Source of the DNA: Aquificota bacterium
Lineage (GTDB): Bacteria; Thermosulfidibacterota; Thermosulfidibacteria; Thermosulfidibacterales; B14-G1
Length of the DNA: 64,000 nt
Assembly: GCA_015486015.1 (NCBI GenBank)
Contig: WFSL01000024.1
Coordinates: 41,780-105,779 of the forward strand
Reading direction: 5' to 3'
A program made the translations under genes and the position numbers. Below are positions 25-20,225 of the stretch, piece by piece. The notes below the pieces were generated by a model. That model was not told the DNA's origin, searched no databases, and saw nothing but the letters and a program-made list of their open reading frames with translations. How positions within the stretch are numbered: position 1 is the first letter of the stretch; every line of letters begins with the position of its first letter.

Positions 25-585
25 ATGATCAACGCCGGTGCTGTCAGGCCTAACATGAAGCTGGAGATAGAGGGTGATCCTTATATAGTGGTTAATGCAG
101 ATCATGTGAAGCCTGGCAAAGGGCAGGCATTCTCGCGCTTTAAGTTGAAGAACCTCAAGACGGGCTTAGTGGTGGAGAAGACCTACAAGGCCGGGGAGAA
201 GTTGAAGAGGGCGGACTTTCTGGTCAAGAAGGCTCAGTATCTTTACAAGCAGGGGGGTGAGTATTTCTTCATGGACTTGGAAACCTACGAACAGATCCCT
301 ATCTTGGGGGATGTGTTGGGTACGGACAAAGACTTTTTGGCAGAGAATGTGGAGGTGAGGCTTCTGCTCTTCAAAGGTGAACCTGTGGGTGTGGAGCTTC
401 CCACCGCCGTGGACCTTCGAGTAGTGGAGACGGAACCAGGGGTGAAGGGTGATACGGCATCGGGAGGGACCAAGCCTGCAAGGCTGGAAACGGGGGTCGT
501 GGTTCAAGTGCCTTTCTTCATAAGCGAAGGGGACATAGTGAGGGTGGATACCAGAAAGGGGGAGTATGTGGAGAGGGTGAAGTGA
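25..585 (+). CDS. efp: Elongation factor P
   Basis: N-terminus [23 protein letters not shown] and the KPGKGQAF loop are the canonical EF-P signature. A GGGGAG RBS sits upstream of the ATG at 25; a GTG at 19 is in frame. Confidence 0.9.
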
Positions 586-1046
586 TGGACACAAGGGAGC
601 TTTTGGAGCTGGTTAAGGCCCTTGCCGAGATGCCTGTAGATGAGCTGGAATTAGAAGTAGAGGGGGTAAGGCTGAGGATAAAGAAGGCCATCCCTAAACC
701 GGTTTCTGAAAAGGTTGAGGTCCCCTCCGCTTCAGTCTCTGTGCCTTCTGTTGCCCATCGAGTTGCCCAAGATGTGGGCCTTTCTCCCACTTTTCCACCT
801 GATGCAGTGGTTGTCCGATCACCCATTGTGGGCACCTTTTATAGATCACCTTCCCCTGACTCTCCCCCCTACGTTGAGATAGGTGACATTGTGGAAAAGG
901 GGCAGACTCTATGTATCATTGAGGCCATGAAGATCATGAACGAGATAGAGTCGGAGGTTAAGGGGGAGATCCTGGATATCTTGGTGGAGAATGCGGACTC
1001 TGTGGAGTATGGGCAGCCCCTCTTCTTGGTGAAGCCTTTTTCCTAA
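585..1046 (+). CDS. accB: Biotin carboxyl carrier protein of acetyl-CoA carboxylase
   Basis: C-terminal biotinyl domain with the [10 protein letters not shown] motif (biotinylated Lys in AMKM/AMKI) preceded by a Pro/Ala-rich linker. The start overlaps the efp stop. Confidence 0.9.
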
Positions 1047-1059
1047 GTACTTGGCTGTG

Positions 1060-2394
1060 ATGGTGAGGAGGGTTCTTATAGCCAACAGGGGGGAGATTGC
1101 TCTCAGGATACTCAGGGCTTGCAGGGAGTTGGGTTTGGAAACAGTAGTGGTCTATTCTGAAGCGGATTGCGATTCCTTGCCGGTGCAACTGGCGGACAGG
1201 GCCATCTGTATAGGTCCTCCCGAGCCTGTTAATAGCTATCTCAATGTTCAGAGCATCATGAGTGCTGCGGAGATAGCGATGGCCGATGCGGTTCATCCCG
1301 GCTATGGTTTTTTGTCTGAAAACCCAGAGTTTGCTGAGATTTGCATGGCCTGCGATCTGGTGTTTATTGGCCCTCCAGCGCATGTGATGCGCCTCATGGG
1401 GCACAAGGCAGGTGCCAGGGCCAAGGTGGCTTCATGGGGCATTCCGGTGATCCCTGGGAGCGAGGGAGAGATAGAGGCGGAGGAAGAGGCAATAGAGGTG
1501 GCGCGCGAGGTAGGATACCCTGTACTTATGAAGGCGGCGGCAGGTGGTGGTGGTAGGGGGATGCGCTTGGCAAGGGACGAGGATGAGTTGCGCCAGGTCT
1601 TTAATACCGCAAGATCAGAGGCTGGGGCGGCCTTTGGGTATGCCGGCCTGTATGTGGAGAAGCTTATCCATCCTGCCAGACATATAGAGGTCCAAGTTGT
1701 GGCCGATGCCAATGGTAATGTGCTGGTGCTGGGGGAGAGGGACTGCTCTCTACAGAGGAGGCATCAGAAGGTGATGGAGGAGGCGCCAGCCTTTCTGCCT
1801 TCACAGCTTAGGGAGCGGCTTTTCGAGGATGCCCGATTAATAACCGAGAGGCTGGGTTATGTGAATGTGGGCACTGTGGAGTTTCTGGTTGATGAGCGTG
1901 GGGACCACTACTTTATCGAGATGAATACAAGAATTCAGGTGGAGCATCCCGTCACAGAGATGGTGACAGGGGTGGACTTGGTGAAGGAGCAGATAAGGAT
2001 TGCATCTGGTGAGCCCCTTTCTGTCTCTCAGAATGATATTAAGGTGGAGGGATGGGCCATTGAGTGTAGGATAAATGCGGAGGACCCAAAGACCTTTCAA
2101 CCGTCTCCTGGCTTAGTGGAGAGGTGGGTGGTCCCTGGTGGTCCAGGGGTGAGGGTGGATAGCGCCGTTTATCAGGGATATGAGATACCTCCATTTTATG
2201 ATTCCCTTGTGGCGAAACTTATTGCACATGGTCGCGATAGAGATGAGGCCATCCAGAGGTGTAGGAGGGCATTGGAGGAGTTTCAAATTAAGGGCATTAA
2301 GACCACCATCCCATTGAGCATGGCCATTCTGGAGTCTGATGATTACCTCCAATGCCGATGTCATATAGATTGGTTGGAGAGGTTCCTTTGGTAA
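1060..2394 (+). CDS. accC: Biotin carboxylase (acetyl-CoA carboxylase subunit)
   Basis: VLIANRGEIALRILRAC N-terminus, an ATP-grasp domain and the HIEVQV / EMNTRIQVEHPVTE motifs place it in the biotin carboxylase family. It follows accB in the classic efp-accBC arrangement. Confidence 0.92.
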   Translation: MVRRVLIANRGEIALRILRACRELGLETVVVYSEADCDSLPVQLADRAICIGPPEPVNSYLNVQSIMSAAEIAMADAVHPGYGFLSENPEFAEICMACDLVFIGPPAHVMRLMGHKAGARAKVASWGIPVIPGSEGEIEAEEEAIEVAREVGYPVLMKAAAGGGGRGMRLARDEDELRQVFNTARSEAGAAFGYAGLYVEKLIHPARHIEVQVVADANGNVLVLGERDCSLQRRHQKVMEEAPAFLPSQLRERLFEDARLITERLGYVNVGTVEFLVDERGDHYFIEMNTRIQVEHPVTEMVTGVDLVKEQIRIASGEPLSVSQNDIKVEGWAIECRINAEDPKTFQPSPGLVERWVVPGGPGVRVDSAVYQGYEIPPFYDSLVAKLIAHGRDRDEAIQRCRRALEEFQIKGIKTTIPLSMAILESDDYLQCRCHIDWLERFLW

Positions 2395-2395
2395 G

Positions 2396-3394
2396 GTGAA
2401 TGATACGCTACTTGTGGTGTGCCTTTCCTCTTTGGGGGATGTAGTTTACACTATCCCAGCGGTTCGGTATTTGAAGGAACTCTATCCAGACGATAGGATA
2501 GTGTGGGTAGTAAATAGGGGTTATGAGAGCCTCCTGCGTTTCCTCCCCTTCGTGGATAGGGCTGTAGCTATGGCCCCGAAGCGTGAGGGGTTTAAAGCAG
2601 CCCTTTATCAGGTGAAGGCTGAAAAGCCAGCGGTGGCCTATGATTTTCAGGGGAGCTTGAAGAGCATGCTGTTGATCTATCTCTCAGGGGCCAAGAGCAG
2701 GATAGGCCAAATTGCAAGTGGATGGAGGGGGCTCCTTGGGAGTCTGTTTTTGAACAAGAGGGTGAATCCTCCTGCCTTGCTCCATAAGGTGGATGAACGA
2801 ATGGCCCTTGTCTCTCATGAGGGGGTGACCGGTTTATCCTCCTTTGGGCTGGAGATCCCCAGGGATGAGGATCAAAAGGCACGTTCCCTCATTGGACCTC
2901 TGGGTATCAGGGGCCCCTATGTTGCCCTCTTGCCTGGTGCCTGTTGGCCTACAAAGCGGTGGCCTGTGGAGCATTTTGCCTGGTTAGCTGGGATGTTGAA
3001 GAGGTATTATTCTATTCCTTCCCTGGTTCTCTGGAGGCCAGTGGATGAGGAGGTGATAGTTCCGCTGCGCGGTGATACTCGTGTGAAGGTGACTCCTCTC
3101 ATGAGCCTTGGGGAAACAATGGCGCTATTGAAGCGCAGTCTCGTGGTTGTAGGTGGAGACACGGGCCTCCTACATCTGGCGGCTGCCTTGGGGCGACCCA
3201 CTCTGGGTCTCTATGGTCCATCTCATGCCTGGAGGGAGGGTCCTTATGGCGATCATCACCTCGTCTTAGAGGTTTCCTGTGAAGAGAGGGGCTGCTACAG
3301 GAAGAGGTGCAGTCGGGCATGCGTGGCTTCTATCCCTAAGGAGATGGTGTGGGATGCACTAAAGGTGATACTGGATGAGGAGATGGGCAGGTGA
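2396..3394 (+). CDS. Glycosyltransferase family 9 (ADP-heptose:LPS heptosyltransferase-like)
   Basis: N-terminus LLVVCLSSLGDVVYTIPAVRYLKELYPD and the C-terminal GGDTGLLHLAAALGRPTLGLYGPS motif are typical of WaaC/WaaF-type heptosyltransferases. Confidence 0.75.
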   Translation: MNDTLLVVCLSSLGDVVYTIPAVRYLKELYPDDRIVWVVNRGYESLLRFLPFVDRAVAMAPKREGFKAALYQVKAEKPAVAYDFQGSLKSMLLIYLSGAKSRIGQIASGWRGLLGSLFLNKRVNPPALLHKVDERMALVSHEGVTGLSSFGLEIPRDEDQKARSLIGPLGIRGPYVALLPGACWPTKRWPVEHFAWLAGMLKRYYSIPSLVLWRPVDEEVIVPLRGDTRVKVTPLMSLGETMALLKRSLVVVGGDTGLLHLAAALGRPTLGLYGPSHAWREGPYGDHHLVLEVSCEERGCYRKRCSRACVASIPKEMVWDALKVILDEEMGR

Positions 3395-3435
3395 GCTTTT
3401 GAGGGGTTATCTTTGGGGAGTTTTAGGGGGTGGTG

Positions 3436-3711
3436 GGTATGCAGCGTGCCCATATATGGGTTTCAGGAAGGGTTCAGGGTGTGTGGTATCGGGCGTCCAC
3501 TGTGGAGGAGGCTCGGAAGTTAGGTTTGAAGGGCTGGGTGAGAAACCTTCCGGATGGGAGAGTGGAGATCTTGGTCGAGGGTCGTAAGGAGAACTTGGAT
3601 AGGCTCATTGCTTGGTGTCATGAGGGTCCCCCATTGGCCATAGTGGATGAGGTTAGGGTGGTCTGGGAACCTTACATTGGGGATCTCTCCGGCTTTACGT
3701 TGGCCTATTAA
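3436..3711 (+). CDS. acyP: Acylphosphatase
   Basis: About 90 aa with the VSGRVQGVWYRAST and GWVRNLPDGRVEI signature motifs of acylphosphatase. Confidence 0.85.
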   Translation, partial: GMQRAHIWVSGRVQGVWYRASTVEEARKLGLKGWVRNLPDGRVEILVEGRKENLDRLIAWCHEGPPLAIVDEVRVVWEPYIGDLSGFTLAY

Positions 3712-3764
3712 AGGTGGGAGAAAGGTGGGCAGATCATACTTGAACGGGGTGAAGTGTGATTTTC

Positions 3765-4682
3765 TCAGGCGTTATAGAGTTGAAGTGCTAATTGTTCAAT
3801 GTAGGGGCGATTCTCAAGTTTTGAGATCCAAGTAGTGGGAATGGCATCAATTCCAAGATATGCCCCAGAAATAGCCCCTGCCATAGCTCCAAGTGTGTCA
3901 CGGTCACCGCCGTTTAACACTGCGCACATCAGGCAGTTTTTGTAAGAATCAGTATGGCGTAAAAAGGCATAGACCGCAAAAGGCATGGATTCGTGGATAG
4001 CAACGGATCTACCTATCTTGCTGGCGGCATCCGATGGTTGACTCCCTTTTGTGATAAGCTCCTTAATGAAGGCCATCTTGTTGCGGATCTCTCCTGTTTC
4101 TGCTGCCTCTATGAGAGATTCTATGAAGCTGCTGAGAGGAAAAGGCTTAGAGGGGTCCAATTCTAAGGCCTTTGCTATGGCCAAGGCCTGAATTGCTGCC
4201 CCATCTCTCCCTATGGGATGGGCATGGGTTACCTCTGCAGATAGTTTGGCCTTTTCTAAGATATCGGGCTTGCCGTGGAAAAAGATGCCCACTGGCACAA
4301 TGCGCATTGCTGAGCCGTTCCCAAAAGACCCCTGCCCGCCAAAGAGGCTTTGAGCCGCCTCTTTATATGTGATCTTTTGGCGGCTCACCAGATCAAAGAC
4401 CTTTGGGGGGCCAGGGGCATACCCCCGCCACGGTTCTCTAAGGAAGTTGCGCCGGAAGGTCTCTCCTATATGCTCCTGGTCTATGTCCCCTTTTTCCAAG
4501 AGAGATTCGGCAAGGCCAATTGCCATGGCGGTATCGTCCGTGTATCTAAGTACTGTAGTGCGATCTATTATCTGAACAAGGGCATCCTCCCGAGAATAGC
4601 GAAAGGCCAGCTCCCCGATGGCATCACCCAGGGCGCTCCCTATCATCGCTCCCACGAATTTGCTTTTGAGATCAAGGGGCAT
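3765..4682 (-). CDS. ADP-ribosylglycohydrolase family protein (ARH/DraG-like)
   Basis: N-terminus GAMIGSALGDAIGE...YTDDTAMAIGLAESL is the ARH metal-binding signature; C-terminal GGDTDTLGAMAGAISGAYLG is the second conserved Asp cluster. Confidence 0.8.
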   Translation of the reverse strand: MPLDLKSKFVGAMIGSALGDAIGELAFRYSREDALVQIIDRTTVLRYTDDTAMAIGLAESLLEKGDIDQEHIGETFRRNFLREPWRGYAPGPPKVFDLVSRQKITYKEAAQSLFGGQGSFGNGSAMRIVPVGIFFHGKPDILEKAKLSAEVTHAHPIGRDGAAIQALAIAKALELDPSKPFPLSSFIESLIEAAETGEIRNKMAFIKELITKGSQPSDAASKIGRSVAIHESMPFAVYAFLRHTDSYKNCLMCAVLNGGDRDTLGAMAGAISGAYLGIDAIPTTWISKLENRPYIEQLALQLYNA

Positions 4683-4896
4683 GAATCTCGACCTCTGACA
4701 AATCTATGATCACTTCTAATTTAGAATTTATCATGGAGAACTACCAAATTCAAGATCAGTGTAGTTTTTGGACCTTTTAAGATCCCAATATACAGGAGGA
4801 TTATTATTTAATAAATCAATTTGATCTATTGGTTTTTTATATATAAAAGTTTGGCTGGACCGTTAGGTCAGCATGAAATCTTGAGGGGGTGTGGGT

Positions 4897-6360
4897 ATGG
4901 AACAAGTGAAATGCACTGTGCCCAAGGCCCTAACAAAAAGGATAGGCCTTGTCTTGGTAATGTTGGTGTCCTTGGTGCTGATATTGGTAACGCAGAATAT
5001 TTCCTTTGGTGCCGAGGTGGTGTTTGTGAATGCACCCAGGGAGACCTGGCCTAAGGAGAAGCTTACCTTAGGGACTGAGGCAAGACTCAGATACGAAAGC
5101 CTCCATAATTTTAATTTCCTTGGGTATGGTAATTCTGTCCCCGTTGGTAAGAAAAGGGACGATATCCTTCTTGGAAGATTAAGGGTTGGTGTTAATTACA
5201 AGTTTAGTGAAAGGTTAAGGGCCTCTTTATGGGGTTATCAGGCAAATGCCTGGGATTTCTCGATTCCTCTAAAGACCTTTAAAAACCCCATCTTTGGTAT
5301 GGAAGATCAGCCATTCGAGGACAGATTAGAGCTATACAAGGCTTATATTGAGGTGAGGCTTTTGGATAAACTCAAGCTCAAAGTGGGCAGACAACGGCTG
5401 GATTATGGGGATTTTAGAACGTTTGGCCTCTGTAACTGGACCAATACGGGTCCTTATCTTTGGGATGCAGTAAAGCTTTCATATGATTTTAACAGGGGCG
5501 ATTTCATAGATATCTTTTATGGGAGAACCAAGATAAATGATTCAAAGAAATTCAGCTTAAACCACAGGCATGCCTTCAATGGCGTAGGCATGTACAGCAG
5601 CTTCAAGCTTCCCTTTTTAAAGGCAACAATCGAGCCTTTCTTCTCATACAAGGGGGATAATACAGATAAATACAGTGGTGAAAAAGGTGGGGAAGGAAGG
5701 CTGAACGAATACTATATAGGCGCCAGAATCTGGGGCAGAGACTTTTATAACTTCGATTATGATTTCTGGTTCTCTAAGGAGTTTGGAAGGAGAGGTCCAG
5801 ACGGTATAGATGCTTATGCCTATCATTTGCTTGTGGGTTATAATTTCAAAAATCTGTGGGCTAAGCCAAGGCTCAGTTTGGAGTTTACCTACTCCTCAGG
5901 GGATGACGACCCTGACGATGGGGACCATAAGACCTTCGATGTAGGGTATGGTGTGTGGGGTTCTTGGTATGGAAACCAATGGAGTTTCTTCCGTTGGAGG
6001 AACTTTCAAGACCTCCAGACAAACCTTGAGCTGTGGCCTGTTAAAGGGGTACACGTGGTTTTGGGTCTGCATAACTATTGGTTGGCAAAGAGGGAGGACG
6101 CCTGGTACCTGAATCCGCATCTCTATAGAGACCCTAAAGGCGATTCGGGTAGAAAGGTGGGGGAGACCTTCGATGTTACTGTTAATGTGAATTTAAGCAA
6201 GGTATTTCCAAATGCTTCTCTGCTTAAAGGCCACTTTTTGAGTGCTACCTATGGGCACTTCTTCCCCAGCGAGGTTCCACAAAATATGGCGGATGAGGAA
6301 AGTGGAGCAAACTGGTTTTACATCCAATGGGGTTTTAAGCGTTCATGGAAGATTCTCTGA
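4897..6360 (+). CDS. Outer-membrane beta-barrel protein, alginate-export/porin-like family
   Basis: Signal peptide (hydrophobic LVLVMLVSLVLILV then FGA|EV) followed by alternating aromatic/hydrophilic beta-strand patterning rich in Y/W/F/G/D/N. The LRYESL motif near the N-terminus is reminiscent of the AlgE-type export barrel. An AT-rich promoter region lies upstream. Confidence 0.55.
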   Translation: MEQVKCTVPKALTKRIGLVLVMLVSLVLILVTQNISFGAEVVFVNAPRETWPKEKLTLGTEARLRYESLHNFNFLGYGNSVPVGKKRDDILLGRLRVGVNYKFSERLRASLWGYQANAWDFSIPLKTFKNPIFGMEDQPFEDRLELYKAYIEVRLLDKLKLKVGRQRLDYGDFRTFGLCNWTNTGPYLWDAVKLSYDFNRGDFIDIFYGRTKINDSKKFSLNHRHAFNGVGMYSSFKLPFLKATIEPFFSYKGDNTDKYSGEKGGEGRLNEYYIGARIWGRDFYNFDYDFWFSKEFGRRGPDGIDAYAYHLLVGYNFKNLWAKPRLSLEFTYSSGDDDPDDGDHKTFDVGYGVWGSWYGNQWSFFRWRNFQDLQTNLELWPVKGVHVVLGLHNYWLAKREDAWYLNPHLYRDPKGDSGRKVGETFDVTVNVNLSKVFPNASLLKGHFLSATYGHFFPSEVPQNMADEESGANWFYIQWGFKRSWKIL

Positions 6361-6372
6361 GGAGGTAGGATT

Positions 6373-7644
6373 ATGGAAGACTACCATGGAATGTGGGCAG
6401 AGCTTGGTCTTGATTTAGAAAGACACGATGAGTTCTTAAAGGGTCTCGGCCCTGCTTACCAGGAAATATACCTGAGTCAGAGATTCAGGCCCAAGGGCAT
6501 GGAGTACTTTGATTTCATCACCTCTGAGGTTCATGGATTGAGGATTAAAGAGCTATTGGAGCTTAAAGAAAAGGGATGCAGGATTGTGGGTACCTTTTGT
6601 GTCTATGTGCCCGAGGAGATCGTCATGGCTACAAGTGGCGTATGGGTTGGTGTCTGTGGAGGCTCTCAGTTCTCTATTCCCGATGCTGAAACGACGCTAC
6701 CCAGAAACCTGTGCCCCCTTATCAAATCTGCCTTTGGATTCATGAAGGCCAAAGCCTCTCCCTACTATAGGGTCCCTGATCTATTTGTGGGTGAGGCTAC
6801 CTGTGACGGGAAGAAGAAGGTATGGGAGATATTTGGAAACTATGTGCCCTTCTACACCATGGAGATTCCCAATGCCAAAAATTATATGGGCAAAAGGCTA
6901 TGGTTGGAGGAGGTGATAAAGTTCAAGGAGAAGATGGAGATGGAGTCTGGTATTTCCATCACCCCTGAAAGGTTAGAGGAGGGGATCCTGGCAGTAAATA
7001 GGAAAAGGAGGGCTTTGGCCAGGCTCTTCGACCTCAGAAAGGCTGATCCTCCTCCCATTAGCGGGAAGGATGCCCTCTTGGTGTCGCAGATCGCCTATTA
7101 TGATGATCCCGAAAGGTTTGCCACAAAAGTGAATGACCTTTGCGACGAGCTGGAGGAAAGGGTGCAAAAGGGGATGGGTGTTGTAGAAAAAGGGACACCC
7201 AGGATCATGATTTCGGGCTGCCCATTTGCCCTTCCTTTCTGGAAGGTTCACCACATTGTTGAAAGCAGTAAAGCGGTTGTTGTTTGTGAAGAGAGCTGTG
7301 TGGGTACCAGATATTTCACCAACCTGGTAGACGAGGGACTTCCCACATTAGAGGATAAGTTAGAGGCCATAGCCGAGCGCTATCTCAAGATAAACTGTAG
7401 CTGCTTTACTCCTAATGATGAAAGGATCGAAGAAATTGCACAATATGTTAAAGATTTTAAGGTTGATGGGGTCATTCTCTTTACCCTCCAGTTTTGCCTT
7501 ACCTATAGCATAGAGTGTATTAAGGTACAGGAGGCCTTAAAGAAGCTCAGTGTTCCAGTGTTAGAGATAGAGACAGACTATGGGGAGCAAGATGTAGGGC
7601 AGTTGCAAACAAGGATAGAGGCGTTTATAGAGCAAATATTATAG
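6373..7644 (+). CDS. 2-hydroxyacyl-CoA dehydratase family protein (HgdB / D-component-like subunit)
   Basis: The protein has the spaced cysteines (CVYVPEE, C-D-GKKK, CEESCVG, CFTPND, CLTYSIEC) and overall architecture of the 2-hydroxyglutaryl-CoA dehydratase D-component / benzoyl-CoA reductase B/C subunit family. It is immediately followed by the cognate activase. Confidence 0.7.
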   Translation: MEDYHGMWAELGLDLERHDEFLKGLGPAYQEIYLSQRFRPKGMEYFDFITSEVHGLRIKELLELKEKGCRIVGTFCVYVPEEIVMATSGVWVGVCGGSQFSIPDAETTLPRNLCPLIKSAFGFMKAKASPYYRVPDLFVGEATCDGKKKVWEIFGNYVPFYTMEIPNAKNYMGKRLWLEEVIKFKEKMEMESGISITPERLEEGILAVNRKRRALARLFDLRKADPPPISGKDALLVSQIAYYDDPERFATKVNDLCDELEERVQKGMGVVEKGTPRIMISGCPFALPFWKVHHIVESSKAVVVCEESCVGTRYFTNLVDEGLPTLEDKLEAIAERYLKINCSCFTPNDERIEEIAQYVKDFKVDGVILFTLQFCLTYSIECIKVQEALKKLSVPVLEIETDYGEQDVGQLQTRIEAFIEQIL

Positions 7645-7657
7645 GGGTTTTGATGGC

Positions 7658-8401
7658 ATGTTTGGTGGTATTGATATCGGCTCTCGGACAGTGAAGATTG
7701 TGATTATGGAGAATGGACATGTAAGGGATTTTCAGGTGATAAATAGCGGTCATGACCCTTATGCTCAGGCCTTTAAGCTAATAAATACCTATAAACCAAA
7801 AAGATTAGTGGCTACAGGATACGGACGTCATGCCCTGGAGTTGGATCTTGCTCATAAGGTGATTACGGAGATAAAGGCCCATGCCATAGGCGCAAGGCAT
7901 CTTTATCCCAGCTGCAGGACAGTGATTGATGTGGGGGGCCAGGATAGCAAGGTCATGTCCTTGAGTGAGAACGGGAAAGTTATGGATTTTAAGATGAATG
8001 ATCGTTGTGCCGCTGGGACTGGAAGGTTCCTTGAGATTATGGCCAAAACCCTGGGGTTTTCAATAGAAGAGTTTGGTGAAGAGGCGTTATCCGCTCAGGA
8101 GTCGGTAAAGATAAACAGCATGTGTACCGTCTTCGCAGAATCGGAGGTGATCTCTCTCATATCAAGGCGTGTACCTTTGTTGAGCATTGCCTTGGGCGTG
8201 CATGAGGCCATTGCGGATCGCATCTCCTCTTTGGCTCACAGGGTGGAGGTCTTGTCCGATGTAGTCTTTACCGGAGGGGTGGCCAGGAACCCTTGTGTCC
8301 ACAGGTTGTTGGAAGAGAGGCTTAGGCAGAGGATATTAGTGCCTCAACATCCGGAGATAGTGGGGGCTTTGGGTGCAGCTATTGAGGCAGAGACCATTTA
8401 A
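7658..8401 (+). CDS. CoA-substrate-specific enzyme activase (HgdC/BcrAD-BadFG ATPase family)
   Basis: N-terminal GIDIGSRTVKIVIMEN (ASKHA actin-like fold), GYGRH, DVGGQDSK and CAAGTGRFLE motifs are typical of the ATP-dependent [4Fe-4S] activator of 2-hydroxyacyl-CoA dehydratases. Confidence 0.85.
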   Translation: MFGGIDIGSRTVKIVIMENGHVRDFQVINSGHDPYAQAFKLINTYKPKRLVATGYGRHALELDLAHKVITEIKAHAIGARHLYPSCRTVIDVGGQDSKVMSLSENGKVMDFKMNDRCAAGTGRFLEIMAKTLGFSIEEFGEEALSAQESVKINSMCTVFAESEVISLISRRVPLLSIALGVHEAIADRISSLAHRVEVLSDVVFTGGVARNPCVHRLLEERLRQRILVPQHPEIVGALGAAIEAETI

Positions 8402-8484
8402 GGCTGATCTGAGCGCTATGCTCCGGCCTTTGGAGAGTGCCTCGCGGGGCCTAACATCGGATTCATGGGAGTGGCACTTTTGCA

Positions 8485-8560
8485 GGCATTATAGGACACA
8501 TCCGCCTGTAGTGATCCTTATGGCGAGGAATTGCCAAATTCAATGGTAGACCCCAAAACT
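8485..8560. repeat. Copy A of a ~70-nt direct repeat in the 3' flank of the minus-strand ligase gene
   Basis: GGCATTATAGGACACATCCGCCTGTAGTGATCCTTATGGCGAGGAATTGCCAAATTCAATGGTAGACCCC aligns at roughly 80% identity with 10427-10495 (GGCATTGTAGGGTATGTCCGCTTGTAGTGATCTTTGCGGCGAAAATTGCCAAATTCAAGACCTGACCCCC). Confidence 0.7.
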
Positions 8561-8573
8561 GTTAGTCTCGACC

Positions 8574-10247
8574 TTACGTACCAGTCTCAAACAGATCTTT
8601 ATATCTTTCGCGCAGTTCGTATTTCTTTACTTTAGTCCCCACAGAAGTGGGTAACTGATCGAGAAAGACCACCTTTCTTGGTGTCTCAAAACCCGCCAGC
8701 TTTGCGCGGCAAAAATCAATCAGTTCTTGCTCAGTGGCGGTTTCTCCAGGTTTCAACACCACAGCGGCGACGACTGCTTCTCCCCAACGCCTATGTGGCA
8801 CGCCAAACACAGCCGCTCTCTCTACCTTAGGGCACATCATCAACGCATTTTCGACACGAATGGTTGAGATGCTCTCGCCTCGAGATTTGATAATATCTTT
8901 GATCCGGTCTACCATGATTATCAGGCCATTCTCGTCGTATTTACAGGCATCACCGCTGTGTAGCCACCCTCCACTAAAGGCTTTTTCTGTTGCTTCTTCG
9001 TTTTTATAATAGCCAGCCATCATAACTGGGGACCGCATTACCTTTTCCCCCACTACACCTGGAGGGCAGGTATTCATGTCTTCATCGACAATTTTTGTGG
9101 CGTAAAATGGGTGCGTCATGCCAAGATAGTTCACTGTGGGCGAGTTTTTCTCATATTTATCGTAAAATTTATGATGCCATCCTCTGGTATCGTAGACACA
9201 CTCAGTTTGTCCATCATAACTGAGAATCACAAGATCCCTACCAAAGATCTCTCTCAGCCTCTTATCAACGCTAGGGGGTAAAGGGCCCCATCCATACGAA
9301 CACGTTCTGAGGAATCTCGTTTCGTACGTACCAGGATTCTTCTCGTATATCTCTGCTATTTTGGCGAAATCAGCAGGACTTCCAAATACGCTGGTGAGTT
9401 TCTCTCTTGTTATTGTGTCAACTATGTGTTGGGGAGTTGGCAATCGAGTCATCACAGCCGTACCACCTGTTATATGGGCTGACAACATCATACCCTGAGC
9501 TGCAATGTGAAAAATAGGGTAATAGATGCCTATTTTGTAATCTAACTCTGTCAAAACTCCTGCCCCCCGAGAGTGGGTCAAAGCATGACTAATGGCGCAA
9601 AAGTATAAGTATACATGGCTAATCATAGCCCCCCTGGGCCACGCAGTGGTACCAGAAGTATACAATATCTCTGCAATATCATCGCCATGAATTCTTACAT
9701 CTGGCTCATCCTTGGATTGTTTATCAATAAATTCATCAAAAGAGGAGCTCCCAGGAGCAACATCCCCTCCGATGGGAATAGTAACGCCAATATCGATTCC
9801 AGTGTTCTTAAGTGTTTCTTCGATCTTCTGAATAAATCGTGCTTCAACGACAGAAAAAGACGGTTCAGTTTGCTTGATGATGTAGCTTACAACATCGTCT
9901 GCAAGCATCACATTAATCGGTACCAGCACCATTCCAGCCTTAAAGGTTCCAAGCTGAGAAATGTAATGTTCAGCACTGTTCAAAGCAAATGTGACGATTC
10001 TGTCTCCCCTTTTGAGTCCCCTTTCGAGCAAGGCGTTAGCAAACTGGTTTGCCTTTTCGTTGAGTTGTTTGTAAGTCAGCCTTTCGTTGTCCTTGAAAGC
10101 ATATGCTCCTTGCCATGAGACTAATGCTTCCTGATTGGGGCGGCTCCAAGTTATTCTTTCCGGGATGTCGCCTACTGCAATCCTATCCCATGGATGGTCG
10201 GCCCGTCTGTTGATCAGGCTTGTAACGTCAAATTTTATTTTTTTCAT
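8574..10247 (-). CDS. AMP-dependent synthetase/ligase (acyl-CoA synthetase family)
   Basis: The adenylate-forming enzyme motifs (LYTSGTTAWPRGAM, YGQTE, GWLHSGD, C-terminal K) place it in the acyl-CoA synthetase family. The likely start is MKKIKFD, with a GGGGG RBS; the upstream in-frame extension is not used. Confidence 0.85.
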   Translation of the reverse strand: MKKIKFDVTSLINRRADHPWDRIAVGDIPERITWSRPNQEALVSWQGAYAFKDNERLTYKQLNEKANQFANALLERGLKRGDRIVTFALNSAEHYISQLGTFKAGMVLVPINVMLADDVVSYIIKQTEPSFSVVEARFIQKIEETLKNTGIDIGVTIPIGGDVAPGSSSFDEFIDKQSKDEPDVRIHGDDIAEILYTSGTTAWPRGAMISHVYLYFCAISHALTHSRGAGVLTELDYKIGIYYPIFHIAAQGMMLSAHITGGTAVMTRLPTPQHIVDTITREKLTSVFGSPADFAKIAEIYEKNPGTYETRFLRTCSYGWGPLPPSVDKRLREIFGRDLVILSYDGQTECVYDTRGWHHKFYDKYEKNSPTVNYLGMTHPFYATKIVDEDMNTCPPGVVGEKVMRSPVMMAGYYKNEEATEKAFSGGWLHSGDACKYDENGLIIMVDRIKDIIKSRGESISTIRVENALMMCPKVERAAVFGVPHRRWGEAVVAAVVLKPGETATEQELIDFCRAKLAGFETPRKVVFLDQLPTSVGTKVKKYELRERYKDLFETGT

Positions 10248-10396
10248 ATATACCCCCTTTGCACAATTTCCTCCAATCTCCTTTGTCCCCCTCAAAGGCC
10301 CTTCGCAAGTAGCACTTCACAGCTCTAAAACGGATTTCCGATGATCCTATCACCTTTGCCAAATAACTTTTATATATTGTGAGATTTAGATAAATT

Positions 10397-10412
10397 CTTG
10401 ATATTAATCAAG
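10397..10412. promoter_or_regulatory. Perfect inverted repeat CTTGAT-ATTA-ATCAAG (candidate operator) upstream of the ligase gene at 8574-10247
   Basis: Exact 6-bp arms with a 4-bp spacer were read directly from the sequence. The site lies in the AT-rich promoter region. Confidence 0.4.
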
Positions 10413-10426
10413 TCCCCATTCTTGTG

Positions 10427-10495
10427 GGCATTGTAGGGTATGTCCGCTTGTAGTGATCTTTGCGGCGAAAATTGCCAAATTCAAGACCTGACCCC
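10427..10495. repeat. Copy B of the ~70-nt direct repeat, in the 3' flank of the second ligase gene
   Basis: See copy A. Together the two copies bracket the 8574-10247 gene and its promoter region. Confidence 0.7.
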
Positions 10496-10500
10496 CAGAT

Positions 10501-11955
10501 CTAAAGGAGTTCTGCCAGCCTTTTCTTGTCTATCTTTCCTACCGAATTCTTGGGGATCTCTTTTAGAACTATAAATTCTCTCGGGCGCTTGAAATCTGCC
10601 AACTTTTCTTTACAAATAGCCTTGAGTTTTTCAGTAATATCTTCACCACTTTCATCTGTAGGTGAGATGAATGCAACTGGTTGTTGGCCCAGTATCGTGT
10701 CTCTTCCCATTACACATACTTCTTTTAAAAGCCCAGTCTCCATGAGGACTTTTTCAATCTCGATTGGATATACATTTTCACCTTGAACAATTATCATGTC
10801 CCCCATCCTACCAAACAGGGTCAAGAAACCTTCTTTATCTAACTTCCCCAAGTCTCCCATCCTAAGATAATCACCAAAGAATGCACTCTTTGTGTCTGCA
10901 TTAATGTAGCCCTTCATATATCTGGGTCGTGTTACTACCTCTCCTACCTTACCCACTACGAATTTATTTTCATCTAAGATCTTCACTTCGACCCCTTTGA
11001 CCGCCTTGCCAACCGTTTCTGAATGGGAGATGGCGTACTTATCATCTAAAATTGTTATTGTCCCACCTACTTCTGTTGATCCATAGAAATTGAATAATTT
11101 TATGTGAGGGAATCTTTTCTTGAGTGCCCTTATGACCTGAGGTCTCATAGGAGCACCTGCGTACCCGAATATTTTAGTTCCTAAAAGCTTGTACTTTTTT
11201 GATATGCCGGAAAGAATTAAAAGAGCAAAAATGGTTGGAGGGCCTAATAGCACATCTATACTATACTCTTCCAGAAGATGTGCCACATTTTGAGGCGTAG
11301 TATCGTTAGTTAATATGACGGTTTCACCCAGTATTATGGCGGGTATTAATTGATCCTCGCAACCTATCGCATGATATAAAGGTGCAGCTATCAGTTGCTT
11401 CATATCTGACTCGAATCCAAGACCTTCGATCATTACATTTGCATAAAATAGGCTGTTTCTATTCGTATGTAAGACCCCTTTTGGAGTACCTGTTGTACCA
11501 GAAGTGAAGAGTATGAAAGCGTTTTCGCTCTTGGAAACTGGAGTTTCTCCGCTTATATCCAGCTCTTTTGCAATTTTTGCGTTTATCTTTGTAACTCTTT
11601 TTATACTACTTACTTTTCCCCCATAAATGGGATTCAATATAATCGCCTTCGATTGAGAAGCATCTATTATATATTTTATTTCTTCTGAAGTTAGGCGATT
11701 GTTTACAGGGACAGTTACCATACCCAATTTGTTTAGTGACAAAAGAGATATTACAAATTCTACCTGGTTATTTAAGAGTAGGGCTACGCTATCACCTTCG
11801 TTTAAACCGATCTCATTTTTTAGATAGTATGAGAATTTATCGACAAGTTTAGATATCTGGCCAAAGGTGAATCTGCTCTCATTGTCAACAACGAAAAGTT
11901 TGCTTTTATTTAACTGGCTAATCTTATAAAACTGTTGATAGATTGACATATTCAT
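10501..11955 (-). CDS. Adenylate-forming enzyme (AMP-ligase; acyl-ACP / acyl-CoA synthetase-like)
   Basis: ILFTSGTTGTPKGV and YGSTE adenylation motifs and a C-terminal GK. The gene is AT-rich, and its start overlaps the upstream ACP gene stop by 4 nt, implying translational coupling. Confidence 0.85.
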   Translation of the reverse strand: MNMSIYQQFYKISQLNKSKLFVVDNESRFTFGQISKLVDKFSYYLKNEIGLNEGDSVALLLNNQVEFVISLLSLNKLGMVTVPVNNRLTSEEIKYIIDASQSKAIILNPIYGGKVSSIKRVTKINAKIAKELDISGETPVSKSENAFILFTSGTTGTPKGVLHTNRNSLFYANVMIEGLGFESDMKQLIAAPLYHAIGCEDQLIPAIILGETVILTNDTTPQNVAHLLEEYSIDVLLGPPTIFALLILSGISKKYKLLGTKIFGYAGAPMRPQVIRALKKRFPHIKLFNFYGSTEVGGTITILDDKYAISHSETVGKAVKGVEVKILDENKFVVGKVGEVVTRPRYMKGYINADTKSAFFGDYLRMGDLGKLDKEGFLTLFGRMGDMIIVQGENVYPIEIEKVLMETGLLKEVCVMGRDTILGQQPVAFISPTDESGEDITEKLKAICKEKLADFKRPREFIVLKEIPKNSVGKIDKKRLAELL

Positions 11956-13886: not shown

Positions 13887-14276
13887 TTCTCCCTCCTTCT
13901 CTCTTCTTCGAATCTTCTAGACCTATGCCCAAGAGAACTATAGGGGGAGAGCCCTTTCTCATAGAGTAACAAGCGCCAGCTCCCACTCTTTTGCTTGAGC
14001 CTTTTGATATGCTCCTATCTTTAAGCCTCCTCATCTCTGGGGCTGGATCCCAAGATGCTCCTTTTGGCGTTAGGTATTCCCCCATTCCAGCCTTCCACTT
14101 CAGTGATCCCGAGCTCTTGCTTTTTAGAGCGGCCTCGCTTCTCTCAAAATATGTAATTAATTTATACTCGGTAAGGATGTCAAGACCCCACAGAGGAGTT
14201 TTCGATTGATTTTTGGAGGGTGCTCGGACTATCTTTTGTTCGAGGGTGGTGAGATCGTTTAAGTTGGGGCTTGGCT

Positions 14277-16306: not shown

Positions 16307-17637
16307 TAGAGGAGAGGGACTTTCGAGTATTAGTGGTAGACGATGATAAGGCGTTTTCCCTGTTGCTCTCCAGTATCCTGAAGGATGAGGGATACCAAGT
16401 GGAGGTGGCATATTCTGGGGAGGCTGCTTTAAAGAAGATCAAGGGGTTTGCACCGCATCTGGTTTTGGTGGACTTGAAGATGCCAGGAATGGGTGGCCTG
16501 GAGCTTATGCAGAATGTGAAGGACGGTGGCTCTGATGTTGACTTTGTAGTGATCACTGCCTTTGGTACGGTAGAGACAGCGGTGGAGGCTATGAAGTTGG
16601 GCGCCTTCGATTATCTCACTAAGCCCTTGAAAGATCCGGAGGAACTGCGGCAGTTGGTAGGAAGGATATTTGAGAGACAGCGGCTGGTGCTGGAGAATCA
16701 GCTTCTCAAAGAGCAACTTGGTCGGGACATGCCTCCCGTAGAGCTCATCTTTCTGGGGATGGAGGATGTGAGGCGAGAGGTGGAAGAGGTGGCACCTACC
16801 AACGCCACTGTCATGCTTTATGGGGAGAGTGGAACAGGCAAATCTCTCATAGCAAAAGTGCTCCACCAGTGGAGCGGGAGAAAGGGACCCTTTGTGGAGA
16901 TAAATTGCGCGGCTATTCCAGAGACGCTTTTGGAGGCAGAACTTTTTGGTTACGAGAGGGGGGCCTTTACGGGTGCTGTTTCCAGCAAGAGAGGAAAGTT
17001 CGAATTGGCCCAAAAGGGAACCATTTTTCTGGATGAGGTCTCGGAAATGGGATTCTCCTCACAGGCTAAACTCCTTAGGGTATTGCAGGATGGTGCCTTC
17101 GAGCGTTTGGGGGGACTGGCCACCCTTAAGACCAATGCGAGGGTGGTTGCGGCCACAAATAGGAACCTGAGGGAGGCCATCAGGGAGAAGAGGTTTAGGG
17201 AGGATCTCTATTATCGCCTCAATGTCTTCCCCATAGAAATCCCCCCTTTAAGACAAAGGAAGGGTGTGATACCGGACTTAGTGAGATACTTCGTGGCCTT
17301 ATCAAGCAAGAGGTTAGGGAAGGAGATAAAGGAGGTGCCTGGGGGTGTGATGGATACCTTGCAAGGTTACCCTTGGCCTGGGAATATTCGGGAGTTGCAG
17401 AACGTGATTGAGAGGGCGGTGATTCTGAGCAAGGGAGAGAGGCTTGCTCCACCTCGATTGGAGGTTGAGCAAGGAGAGGATTTCATTCCAGAAGGGAGCC
17501 TTAAGGAGGTGGAGAAAAGGGCCATCGAGAAGGCACTGAAGCGGTTTGGTGGGAACAGGAGGAGGGCCGCAGAGTTCTTAGGCATCTCCCTAAGGGCTCT
17601 TCAATACAAGATCAAGGGTTATGGGATTACCCAGTGA
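16303..17637 (+). CDS. Sigma-54-dependent response regulator (NtrC family: REC + AAA+ + Fis-type HTH)
   Basis: Receiver domain (VLVVDDD...VDLKMPGMGG), Walker A GESGTGKS, an intact GAFTGA motif (ELFGYERGAFTGA) and a C-terminal HTH (AAEFLGISLRALQYKIK). Confidence 0.9.
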   Translation: MIEERDFRVLVVDDDKAFSLLLSSILKDEGYQVEVAYSGEAALKKIKGFAPHLVLVDLKMPGMGGLELMQNVKDGGSDVDFVVITAFGTVETAVEAMKLGAFDYLTKPLKDPEELRQLVGRIFERQRLVLENQLLKEQLGRDMPPVELIFLGMEDVRREVEEVAPTNATVMLYGESGTGKSLIAKVLHQWSGRKGPFVEINCAAIPETLLEAELFGYERGAFTGAVSSKRGKFELAQKGTIFLDEVSEMGFSSQAKLLRVLQDGAFERLGGLATLKTNARVVAATNRNLREAIREKRFREDLYYRLNVFPIEIPPLRQRKGVIPDLVRYFVALSSKRLGKEIKEVPGGVMDTLQGYPWPGNIRELQNVIERAVILSKGERLAPPRLEVEQGEDFIPEGSLKEVEKRAIEKALKRFGGNRRRAAEFLGISLRALQYKIKGYGITQ

Positions 17638-17816: not shown

Positions 17817-18269
17817 ATGAAAAGGTGTTCTTTGAGTATATGTTTGAGCATACTTCTCACTGCCTTTCCGTCTGTGTTATGTGCTCGATCTGCCATCTTT
17901 ATCCTGATGGAGAGGTATGATCCCAACACCGAGCTTGCCCTTGAGGGTCAGGTCTTGAGGGACCTGACGGTAAAGGGGGCTTCTTCTGATAGACCTGTCG
18001 TAATCCCTGTCTCTATGAAGGGGAGGGTAATTTTTGTGATCCTGGGTCCCCATTGGTTTGTGAGGAACATGGGGATCTACCTGAGGAAAGGAGAATTGGT
18101 TCGGGTTGTGGGCTCAAAGGTCTATGGTAGAGATGGTAGGCTTTATATAATTGCCAGGGAGTTGTTCATCTCAGGTGGGAAGAGCTACCGTATCTATATA
18201 TTTAGGAATAAGCGTTATGTGCCTTTCTGGTATAGAACGAAGGAGACAGGCTATCCCATGCGCAGGTGA
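17817..18269 (+). CDS. Hypothetical secreted protein
   Basis: Signal peptide MKRCSLSICLSILLTAFPSVLCA. I recognise no conserved motifs. Its 3' end overlaps the rpoN 3' end in convergent orientation. Confidence 0.4.
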   Translation: MKRCSLSICLSILLTAFPSVLCARSAIFILMERYDPNTELALEGQVLRDLTVKGASSDRPVVIPVSMKGRVIFVILGPHWFVRNMGIYLRKGELVRVVGSKVYGRDGRLYIIARELFISGGKSYRIYIFRNKRYVPFWYRTKETGYPMRR

Positions 18270-19510
18270 GGTCCTCTCCTTTCTCTGCTCGAGGGAATTC
18301 CAAGCTCCATTCGATATTTGGTCACCGTACGCCGGGCCACCTTGTAGCCCCTCTTATTGAGCTCTTGTGCTATTTTTTCATCCCCCATAGGGGAGCGAGG
18401 GTCTTCTGCCTTAATCAGATTGTAGATAATCTCCTTGACTTCTCCTGCTTCCCCTTTGAAGAAGACACGAAGGGGGAAGGTGCCCCTGGGAGTATGGATG
18501 TACTTCCCTGTGAGAAGCCTCTGGACGGTTGATTTGCTCACCCCAAGGATGCGGGCTGCCTCCTCTGTAGATAGGGCTACAGGACTTGACCGTTTTGCGA
18601 GAAAGAATTTCCATTCCTTTTCCCCTATGTAGCGTCCAAGTTTCTTCAGGTACCTCTCTCTTAGCATGAGGCCCCTGATGGTGCCCAGGGCCTTGGCCCT
18701 CTTGTCCCGTAGATAGTGCCGGAGTTCTGGATTCCCAGGTATGGCCTTCACCCTCCTGCTGAGTGCCAGTTTTGGAATTCTATCTTGAGTGAGGGATACG
18801 ATAAGCTCTTCCCCTACATACAGGATCACGATGTCAGCCCGGATCCCGCCTTCCGTGTCTTGTGAGAAAGATGCTCCTGGGAAAGGGGTGAGATGAGAGA
18901 TACGCTCTACTACTTCTTCCAGCTCCTGAGGGGTGATCCTGAGCCTGGTGGCGAGGCGCCTTTTCTTCCCTTGCAAGAGAAGTTCCCAGCCCCTTGTCAG
19001 AAGTTCTTGTACCTTTTTGTCCTGTGGGTAAAGGAGCCTTGCCTGCATGAGGAGGCTCTCTTTCACGTTTCGGGCACCACACCCTATGGGATCTAAGGTA
19101 GAGAGGAGCCTTCTTCCTTCCTCTACATCCTCCAGGGTGGTAGATAACTCTTTTGCAATCTCGATAGGATCCCTTTCCAGGAACCCCTTGGGATTTAGAT
19201 AGGGGATCAGTTGACTGGCAGCCTCTCGGGCCCTTTGGGGGATATTCATGGTATAGAGCTGTTCATTCAAGTGCTCATGGAGGGTTTTCCCCTTATCGGC
19301 CAGCTTTTCCCACCAAGGGGTGGAGTCCTGTTCTTCTTCATCCCATGGAAACTCCCTCACCTCTATGAAGGGGTTTTCTTCTGCCTCTTGCCATATGGTC
19401 TCTTCCAGCTCCACCTGGGGCATGGCAATGAGACGCATGGCTTGGATAAGCACGGGCGTAACCCTGAGTTCAGGGCGTAGGGTGGTCTCTAAGTGTGTTT
19501 CAAGGGCCAT
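18251..19510 (-). CDS. rpoN: RNA polymerase sigma-54 factor
   Basis: N-terminus MALETHLETTLRPELRVTPVLIQAMRLI (region I, Leu/Gln pattern) and the C-terminal RpoN box ARRTVTKYRMELGIPSS with an HTH. Confidence 0.9.
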   Translation of the reverse strand: MALETHLETTLRPELRVTPVLIQAMRLIAMPQVELEETIWQEAEENPFIEVREFPWDEEEQDSTPWWEKLADKGKTLHEHLNEQLYTMNIPQRAREAASQLIPYLNPKGFLERDPIEIAKELSTTLEDVEEGRRLLSTLDPIGCGARNVKESLLMQARLLYPQDKKVQELLTRGWELLLQGKKRRLATRLRITPQELEEVVERISHLTPFPGASFSQDTEGGIRADIVILYVGEELIVSLTQDRIPKLALSRRVKAIPGNPELRHYLRDKRAKALGTIRGLMLRERYLKKLGRYIGEKEWKFFLAKRSSPVALSTEEAARILGVSKSTVQRLLTGKYIHTPRGTFPLRVFFKGEAGEVKEIIYNLIKAEDPRSPMGDEKIAQELNKRGYKVARRTVTKYRMELGIPSSRERRGPHLRMG

Positions 19511-19523
19511 GCCTGGGTGGTCC

Positions 19524-20225
19524 CTATCCTCCATCTTTTTCCCCTTTTTTAAGGCCCGACTTTCCAAAGCGCCTACCCAGCTCCCTGTATATCTCTTCAG
19601 GTGGGATATTGTGGTATCCCATGGCGACCAATGCATGGAAAAACAGGTCCCCCATCTCGTATATGATCCTTTCCTTCTTTCCGTCTTTGCAGGCCATCAC
19701 CACCTCTGTGGCCTCCTCGCCCACCTTCTTTAGGATGGCGTCGTGTCCCTCCCTGAAGAGAGAAGCCACATAGGAGTCTCTCCGCTCCACGTGGTGTCTC
19801 CTATCAAGTATCACTTCGTATATATGCTCCAGGATAGTGCATCCCTCACCGTACACCTCTTCAGGTTTGAATATCTTCTTCTCTGCTTTTCTCCAACCTT
19901 TTGCGCTCATGGTTCTGAAGAAACAGCTCCTGTAACCCATGTGGCAGGCAGCCCCTATCTGGTCTACCTTTACCAGGATGGTGTCGCTGTCGCAGTCAAT
20001 GCGGATCTCCTGCACCTTCTGCACATGCCCTGACTCCTCCCCCTTTTTCCATAAGCGTCCCCTCGAACGGCTCCAGAAGTGAGTATAGCCTGTCTCCAGG
20101 GTTTTCCTCAGGGCCAGCTCATTCATGTATGCCACCATGAGCACCTCACCGCTATGGACATCCTGAATGATCGCGGGTACCAAGCCCCTGTCGTCAAACT
20201 TTATCTCCTTTAGCAGGTGCTCCAT
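19524..20225 (-). CDS. hisIE: Bifunctional phosphoribosyl-AMP cyclohydrolase / phosphoribosyl-ATP pyrophosphatase
   Basis: N-terminal HisI domain (GLVPAIIQD...[17 protein letters not shown]...CD.D) fused to a C-terminal HisE MazG-like domain ([11 protein letters not shown]...EEATEVVMA). Confidence 0.88.

Follow-up and report, generated by a model that had tools for sequence, protein, structure and literature searches.

In Campbell-type or site-specific integration, two copies of an attachment site in the same orientation (attL and attR) flank a foreign, self-contained insert at a synteny breakpoint, and one of the copies directly adjoins a resident gene at its 3' end. A similar arrangement was found in a stretch of 64,000 nt from an Aquificota bacterium (contig WFSL01000024.1, positions 41,780 to 105,779), which is referred to below as the window. 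Here, two copies of a direct repeat of about 70 nt, R_A and R_B, bracket a gene coding for an AMP-forming acyl-CoA ligase (ligase557). The repeat is real, occurs in two copies in all searchable data, has diverged at the neutral rate and with the neutral spectrum of the lineage, and flanks a foreign, lineage-specific gene at a synteny breakpoint. With slightly better than even confidence, R_A and R_B are read as the neutrally decaying scar of a recombination that placed the acquired ligase557 between two convergent operons. The pair differs from attL/attR sites in that an integrase or recombinase, a tRNA or tmRNA target, and a demonstrable empty site were not encountered at this locus, in that the insert consists of a single 1.7-kb gene, and in that the copies are only ~80% identical.

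A second described system is that of integron cassettes and their attC sites, including cassette arrays without an integrase (CALIN), in which an open reading frame (ORF) is followed by a site of ~60-140 bp, in tandem and in one orientation. This order recurs at the present locus, but the repeat has neither R''/R' core sites nor a palindromic hairpin, the gene possesses promoter-like signals of its own, and only two sites are present, one of which follows a conserved operon. Similarly, REP, BIME, ERIC, and MITE repeats are short, non-coding, and confined to intergenic DNA at the 3' ends of genes, as is the case for R_A and R_B. Unlike these repeats, however, R_A and R_B are the sole known copies and adjacent to each other, without dyad symmetry or terminal inverted repeats and without relatives in the databases.

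Extent and divergence of the repeat pair

The locus comprises the following features (strand in brackets; gene products assigned by means of Pfam):

8402-10500: segment private to this genome (R_A, ligase557, its candidate promoter, and R_B), between two blocks conserved in relatives, as delimited by the ends of DNA homology
8475-8543: R_A, repeat copy of 69 nt with a weak extension to ~8554, in the intergenic region where the 3' ends of the DCCP-activator gene and of ligase557 face each other, as delimited by alignment
8574-10247 (-): ligase557, AMP-forming acyl-CoA ligase (AMP-binding and AMP-binding_C)
10417-10484: R_B, repeat copy of 68 nt with a weak extension to ~10496, between the ligase484 stop codon and the candidate ligase557 promoter, as delimited by alignment
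10501-11955 (-): ligase484, last gene of an AT-rich U32-nitroreductase-ACP-ligase operon (GC content 0.33-0.38; GC content at third codon positions, GC3, 0.27-0.36)
7658-8401 (+): BcrAD/BadFG-type ATPase activator, last gene of a porin/HGD-D/activator operon (the DCCP operon)
6373-7644 (+): HGD-D family protein (DCCP), homologues of which are named 'double-cubane-cluster-containing anaerobic reductase' by NCBI
4891-6360 (+): alginate-export-type porin

A preliminary description of this DNA had reported direct repeats of roughly 80% identity, and this was confirmed. The strict cores (8485-8543 and 10427-10484) were identical at 48 out of 59 positions (81%), with one 1-nt indel, both in a MAFFT and in a local alignment. 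The local score of R_A and R_B amounted to 61, whereas 500 dinucleotide-shuffled controls averaged 16.5 (sd 2.0) and reached 26 at most; in the reverse-complement orientation, the score equaled the background. Leftward, the similarity extended to 8475/10417, resulting in 69 columns with 54 identities, 14 transitions, no transversions, and one indel; rightward, it was weak and reached ~8554/10496 via a common GACCCC. Both shared cores listed in the preliminary description, TTGCCAAATTCAA and GTAGTGATC, were retrieved in R_A and R_B alike. Also, each copy indeed lies 3' of a minus-strand AMP-ligase gene, the R_A core ending 30 nt from the stop codon of ligase557 (8574-8576) and the R_B core 16 nt from the stop codon of ligase484 (10501-10503), which is abutted by the weak extension of R_B. 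That these genes did not arise by a simple tandem duplication was borne out as well, as ligase557 and ligase484 are distant paralogues with an identity of 29% (E=8e-42), which excludes a recent event of this kind. The substitutions among the 15 differing columns of R_A and R_B were distributed over the positions modulo 3 as 3/5/6, thus without 3-periodicity, indicating that the repeat is non-coding; a coding or pseudogene remnant was rejected for the same reason.

The divergence of the two copies (15 of 69 columns, ~20%) was close to that of third codon positions between the window and the nearest relative (L014), which differed at 18.6% and 20.2% in two genes. Furthermore, the coding DNA of this comparison displayed 145 transitions and 32 transversions (82% transitions; 80% at third positions). 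Under that lineage spectrum, the occurrence of 14 transitions out of 14 substitutions has P~0.05-0.06, and the all-transition pattern was rejected as evidence for RNA pairing after this calibration, since the neutral spectrum of the lineage already consists of 80-82% transitions. Given that the divergence approximates the third-position rate, that the differences are randomly placed (P=0.24 for the longest stretch of identities reaching 15 or more), and that 3-periodicity is lacking, the repeat behaves like unconstrained DNA, probably duplicated around the time when this lineage split from that of L014. From R_A to R_B, the + strand underwent six C>T, five A>G, two T>C, and one G>A changes (an asymmetry of 11:3; P=0.057). 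This direction bias was alike at stem-like and loop-like positions and could reflect strand-biased deamination or a weak constraint on a + strand RNA.

A third copy was not found in the 64 kb by means of patterns with up to three mismatches, an nhmmer profile, or short-word BLAST, the next best nhmmer match after R_A and R_B having an E value of 0.73. With a two-core pattern, two matches (Chitinophagaceae and Acidobacteria) were obtained among 185,579 species-representative genomes; these were rejected as true copies, as the agreement was restricted to the specified bases. A relaxed pattern yielded 37 metagenome (JGI) and two viral (IMG/VR) matches, approximately the chance expectation. When scored with the repeat profile, the true copies attained 95-101 bits, but none of the genome, metagenome, and viral matches, which agreed in the specified bases only, exceeded 15 bits; BLAST searches of plasmids and phages with the repeat returned nothing. 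The sole other occurrence, 100% identical, was on contig L003 of a metagenome-assembled genome of the same species. Hence, the copy count suggested in the preliminary description stopped at the pair throughout these collections, and the small repeat family considered there was left unsupported (the pair within the 64 kb, and nothing in the public collections scanned). Three weaker candidates in the window were discarded too. In the ligase557 leader, a putative degenerate copy (10330-10368) was rejected, as 213 out of 400 and 394 out of 400 shuffles scored as well in gapped alignments. Positions 4736-4755 (17 out of 20 identical to R_B) were dropped as a repeat-related mosaic junction, since about five unrelated places scored at least as high in a window-wide tile control, and the junction region 13887-14270 was dropped because it fell within the background of the window-wide tile scan.

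Origin of ligase557 and its surroundings

The base composition of ligase557 deviated from that of the window. Its GC3 of 0.444 was 4.3 sd below that of 29 long ORFs outside 4.8-14 kb (0.581±0.032; minimum 0.479). The neighbors differed from it in turn, with a GC3 of 0.50-0.54 for the porin and DCCP genes and of 0.27-0.36 for the operon of U32 peptidase, nitroreductase, ACP, and ligase484 (minus strand, 13886 down to 10501), the GC content of which was 0.33-0.38 versus 0.53-0.57 in the flanks. By GC3, the region 4.6-14 kb is therefore a mosaic that falls into three parts, namely the porin and DCCP genes, ligase557, and the ligase484 operon, and the two boundaries between these parts are occupied by R_A and R_B. 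In addition, the best non-self homologue of ligase557 was 73% identical, whereas the best relatives of its neighbors were 89% (ligase484) and 94% (DCCP operon) identical, which points to a lineage-specific acquisition of ligase557.

The DNA on both sides of the private segment was conserved in relatives up to the stop codons. Three relatives of the DCCP operon were retrieved, namely L014, L057, and L056, with protein identities of 94, 88, and 86% and DNA identities of 90.6, 79.5, and 84.9%, respectively. Their DNA homology stopped at window positions ~8389-8397, at the activator stop codon; the downstream genes differed between L014 and L056, while the L057 contig stops at the activator gene. 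The repeat was absent from all three. On the other side, the homologue of ligase484 in L008 was 89% identical at the amino acid level, and its likeness to the window stopped at the stop codon as well, the genes downstream in L008 (coding for an 83-aa protein, a GGDEF protein, LeuRS, and MiaA) being absent from the window. In L009-L013, harboring ligase484 homologues of 74-75% identity, a KASIII gene precedes the U32, nitroreductase, ACP, and ligase484 genes, and the operon goes on with prephenate-dehydrogenase-like and amidohydrolase genes that are missing at this locus. The repeat was found neither downstream of these ligase484 homologues (L008 and L009-L013) nor downstream of the ligase557 homologues (L004-L007). 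Since the homology of relatives to both flanks stops at stop codons, the segment 8402-10500, in which ligase557 converges on the DCCP operon, is private to this genome. R_A and R_B are hence direct repeats flanking DNA absent from relatives, as attL and attR sites are. An ORF of 557 residues beside the DCCP operon of L056 was rejected as a ligase557 orthologue, as it codes for an unrelated protein (E=1).

The homologues of ligase557, at most 73% identical, occurred in unrelated β-oxidation, ABC-transporter, or insertion-sequence-rich neighborhoods, without the repeat nearby. Near the closest of them, in L004, transposase genes (DDE_3, DDE_Tnp_1, and DDE_Tnp_1_4) were present at 300-5010, tying the ligase557 subfamily to mobile DNA in at least one other genome.

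Upstream of ligase557, two further features were found:

10369-10374 (-): -10-like hexamer TATAAA of the predicted ligase557 promoter, ~30 nt from the centre of the palindrome
10397-10412: perfect CRP/FNR-type palindrome CTTGAT-ATTA-ATCAAG, centred ~42 nt upstream of the predicted ligase557 transcription start

The palindrome harbors the sole TTGAT-N4-ATCAA of the 64 kb (10398-10411), between R_B and the ligase557 start codon. A palindrome and a hexamer in this geometry constitute a class II CRP/FNR-dependent promoter, as established for FNR of E. coli. Judged by the E. coli FNR consensus, ligase557 may thus be preceded by a candidate CRP/FNR-type class II promoter. With promoter-like signals of its own between R_B and the start codon, ligase557 looks like a self-contained transcription unit. 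Regulatory signals were also sought in the repeat itself. A sigma-54 promoter (TGGCA...) was rejected because GG and GC are 8, 9, or 11 nt apart where 10 nt would be required, and because this distance differs between the copies through the indel. A sigma-70 promoter with TATAAT/TACAAT at the minus-strand 3' end of the repeat was rejected for want of a -35 element at 16-18 nt and of an extended -10, and a promoter scan of that end yielded nothing. Similarly, CsrA-type GGA sites were rejected, as these are not kept between R_A and R_B.

Some short motifs recur around the predicted promoter. The 13-mer ATATATAAAAGTT, followed by (ATT)TGGC, is present at 4839-4851 (+) and 10365-10377 (-), with 0.002 occurrences expected in the window (2 out of 500 region shuffles), and spans the -10-like hexamers upstream of both ligase557 and the porin-DCCP operon. 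The two putative promoters might thus be regulated together or share an origin. Further, ATTTGGCAA occurs three times in the window, with 0.49 expected, always on the minus strand and at this locus only. One occurrence (10356-10364) coincides with the predicted ligase557 transcription start, and the other two are inside R_A (8531-8539) and R_B (10472-10480). In L004, GAATTTGGCAAT is present at 5964-5975, just after a TAGAAT hexamer and 26-37 nt before the ATG of the ligase gene that is 73% identical. ATTTGGCAA and GAATTTGGCAAT could represent a short regulatory motif or could be due to chance.

A proposed insertion scar and rival explanations

From this arrangement, we infer an insertion event and its crossover mechanism. 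A ligase557 segment of ~1.9 kb, consisting of the gene, its own promoter, and one repeat unit, would have recombined into the junction of two convergent operons. The simplest route would be one crossover, of the Campbell or att type, by which a circular or looped intermediate joined the chromosome in a common stretch of ~70-85 bp, so that copies of this stretch came to flank the insert in the same orientation. R_A and R_B would then mark the two ends of a single local duplication. Alternatively, a duplication arising in repair at insertion would have the same appearance. Afterwards, R_A and R_B would have drifted apart neutrally, without a function of their own. The preliminary description had already considered a recombination or attachment-site pair marking the insertion of the ligase. 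This proposal gained a foreign, lineage-specific gene, promoter-like signals, a double break of homology, and neutral decay, while an empty site, a recombinase, a tRNA target, and an attC signature were not retrieved in its favor. It is the best supported of the three readings offered there, although unproven.

Several observations weigh against the insertion scar. A single-copy empty site was not found, as neither junction recurs in L008, L009-L013, L014, L056, or L057; next to the DCCP operon in L014 and L056, and next to the ligase484 operon in L008 and L009-L013, other genes are present in each case. Recombinase or transposase genes were absent within ~15 kb (Pfam and gene calls), the region annotated (~1-25 kb) containing only metabolic and housekeeping genes, and ARAGORN detected no tRNA or tmRNA gene in the window. 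Within this genome, the copy search spans the 64 kb plus ~1.4 kb more in L003. The agreement with the neutral clock is consistent with, but not unique to, the decay of once-identical copies, because a donor and a recipient site may have differed at the outset to the extent seen now (80% identity). Finally, some weak signs of structure on the + strand were found. Folds of the exact repeat had z scores of -1.99 (R_A) and -1.60 (R_B) on that strand, the alifold consensus energy was -13.7 versus -9.2±2.6 for column shuffles (P~0.05), with a structure conservation index (SCI) of 0.70, and the 11:3 asymmetry of substitution direction (P=0.057) was counted as a weak + strand RNA signal.

These last observations favor a structured RNA on the + strand, antisense to the ligases and, in the case of R_A, located in the 3' untranslated region (3' UTR) of the DCCP operon. 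Indeed, the 12-bp consensus stem contains four substitutions, each of which preserves pairing on that strand as G.U, and C>T and A>G together make up 11 of the 14 changes. Such an RNA is nevertheless improbable, as the minimum-energy structures of R_A and R_B differ, the z scores were only -0.75 and -0.56 when flanks were included, and double changes were absent. Moreover, the four loop substitutions share the direction bias, which indicates a mutational cause. A promoter or terminator context common to both copies is lacking, R_B being preceded on the + strand only by the antisense ligase557, and the element was present in no relative. Rfam gave no match either, both at gathering scores over the window and at E<=1 over 8350-10560. 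On the minus strand, that is, in gene orientation, the copies might serve the mRNAs of the two ligases as 3'-UTR elements or as terminators, given that both are within 30 nt of a ligase stop codon and in the same orientation. A conserved 3'-UTR RNA of this kind had been proposed in the preliminary description, on account of a CGCC...GGCG hairpin with a compensatory C-to-T change, but it did not hold. Folding in gene orientation was no better than for shuffles (z +0.46 for R_A and +0.14 for R_B), the consensus energy of -8.5 was at the mean of the column shuffles (-8.3), covariation was absent, and a terminator-like hairpin followed by a T-run was found in neither intergenic region. The change in CGCC...GGCG turned out to be a single one-sided transition, giving a U.G wobble on the + strand and a C.A mismatch on the minus strand, and no double-sided (compensatory) change exists between R_A and R_B. 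Together with the missing Rfam match and the absence of the element downstream of the ligase homologues, this makes a 3'-UTR function very improbable.

Among explanations at the DNA level, a functional cis-regulatory role may be envisaged, with R_A and R_B as auxiliary sites, like looping operators, for a regulator of ligase557 and/or the DCCP operon, one copy being ~50-120 nt upstream of the ligase557 promoter and the other downstream of the gene. The three minus-strand occurrences of ATTTGGCAA, one of them at the predicted transcription start, the presence of GAATTTGGCAAT after TAGAAT upstream of the ATG in L004, and the 13-mer across the -10-like hexamers of ligase557 and the porin-DCCP operon agree with such a role. 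Yet, it is unlikely, since ~69 nt far exceeds the size of an operator, the differences are random without conserved blocks, the divergence matches the neutral rate, no gene on either strand has R_A upstream of it, and a regulator gene is absent from the locus. Also, gapped alignments of the repeat with the ligase557 leader or the L004 upstream region were at background, and a window-wide control gave equally strong short matches at unrelated places. Quite unlikely, too, is a dispersed intergenic family of the REP or MITE type, two members of which recombined and thereby juxtaposed the ligase and its neighbors. The intergenic location at synteny breakpoints and a copy search covering 64 kb of a roughly Mb-sized genome leave room for this explanation, whereas the two copies are adjacent within the 64 kb (next nhmmer match E=0.73), palindromes and terminal inverted repeats are lacking, and members were found neither in the 185,579 species genomes nor in the JGI metagenomes, IMG/VR, plasmids, or phages. 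In particular, 8402-8573 contains no inverted repeats, dyad symmetry, or terminal inverted repeats. A CALIN array with attC-like sites would account for the alternation of genes and sites in a single orientation, in which every site directly follows the 3' end of an ORF. Such an array is extremely improbable, as the attC core sites RYYYAAC and GTTRRRY occur in neither copy (the sole match in the two intergenic regions being at 8449, outside the repeat), an imperfect-palindrome hairpin is missing, and intI was absent from the annotated neighborhood; furthermore, ligase557 has its own promoter-like signals, and ligase484 ends a conserved operon instead of being a cassette. The template/variable repeat (TR/VR) pair of a diversity-generating retroelement was rejected, because the differences are not confined to adenines and a reverse transcriptase was not found in the annotated neighborhood.

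The insertion scar described above is ordinary in kind and opens no new mechanism. It is distinctly improbable that the repeat represents either the site of a minimal non-integron gene-capture system (one promoter-bearing gene plus one site, with a recombinase acting in trans) or a + strand structured RNA common to the two junctions of a horizontally assembled CoA-ligase/double-cubane-reductase locus. If the pair is indeed a scar, it serves chiefly as a marker of when, and between which positions, an acyl-CoA ligase was acquired beside a double-cubane-cluster reductase operon, in a low-GC mosaic of 9 kb. It would also illustrate cleanly how non-coding DNA, once duplicated, decays at the synonymous rate. 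Its weight would be greater if further copies or excision products revealed an active recombination site.

Flanking operons and further repeats

The 5' leader of the porin operon, TTTGGCTGGACCGTTAGGTCAGCATGAAATCTTGAGGGGGTGTGGGTATGG, was 100% identical to L014 over ~50 nt (4849-4899 in the window; ~9523-9573 in L014). This identity despite a neutral divergence of ~19% suggests that the leader is under constraint. Most of the alginate-export-type porin gene itself has disappeared from L014 (window ~5257-6335 versus L014 9573-9986), where only an N-terminal remnant of 137 aa, 76% identical, is situated directly before the DCCP gene.

Another direct repeat, of 86 nt and 76% identity, was found at 16544-16629 and 59862-59947, inside two genes coding for NtrC-type response regulators; it is of the usual kind, due to paralogy of the receiver-domain coding sequence. 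Finally, the window contains a gene coding for sigma-54 (rpoN) at 18251-19636.

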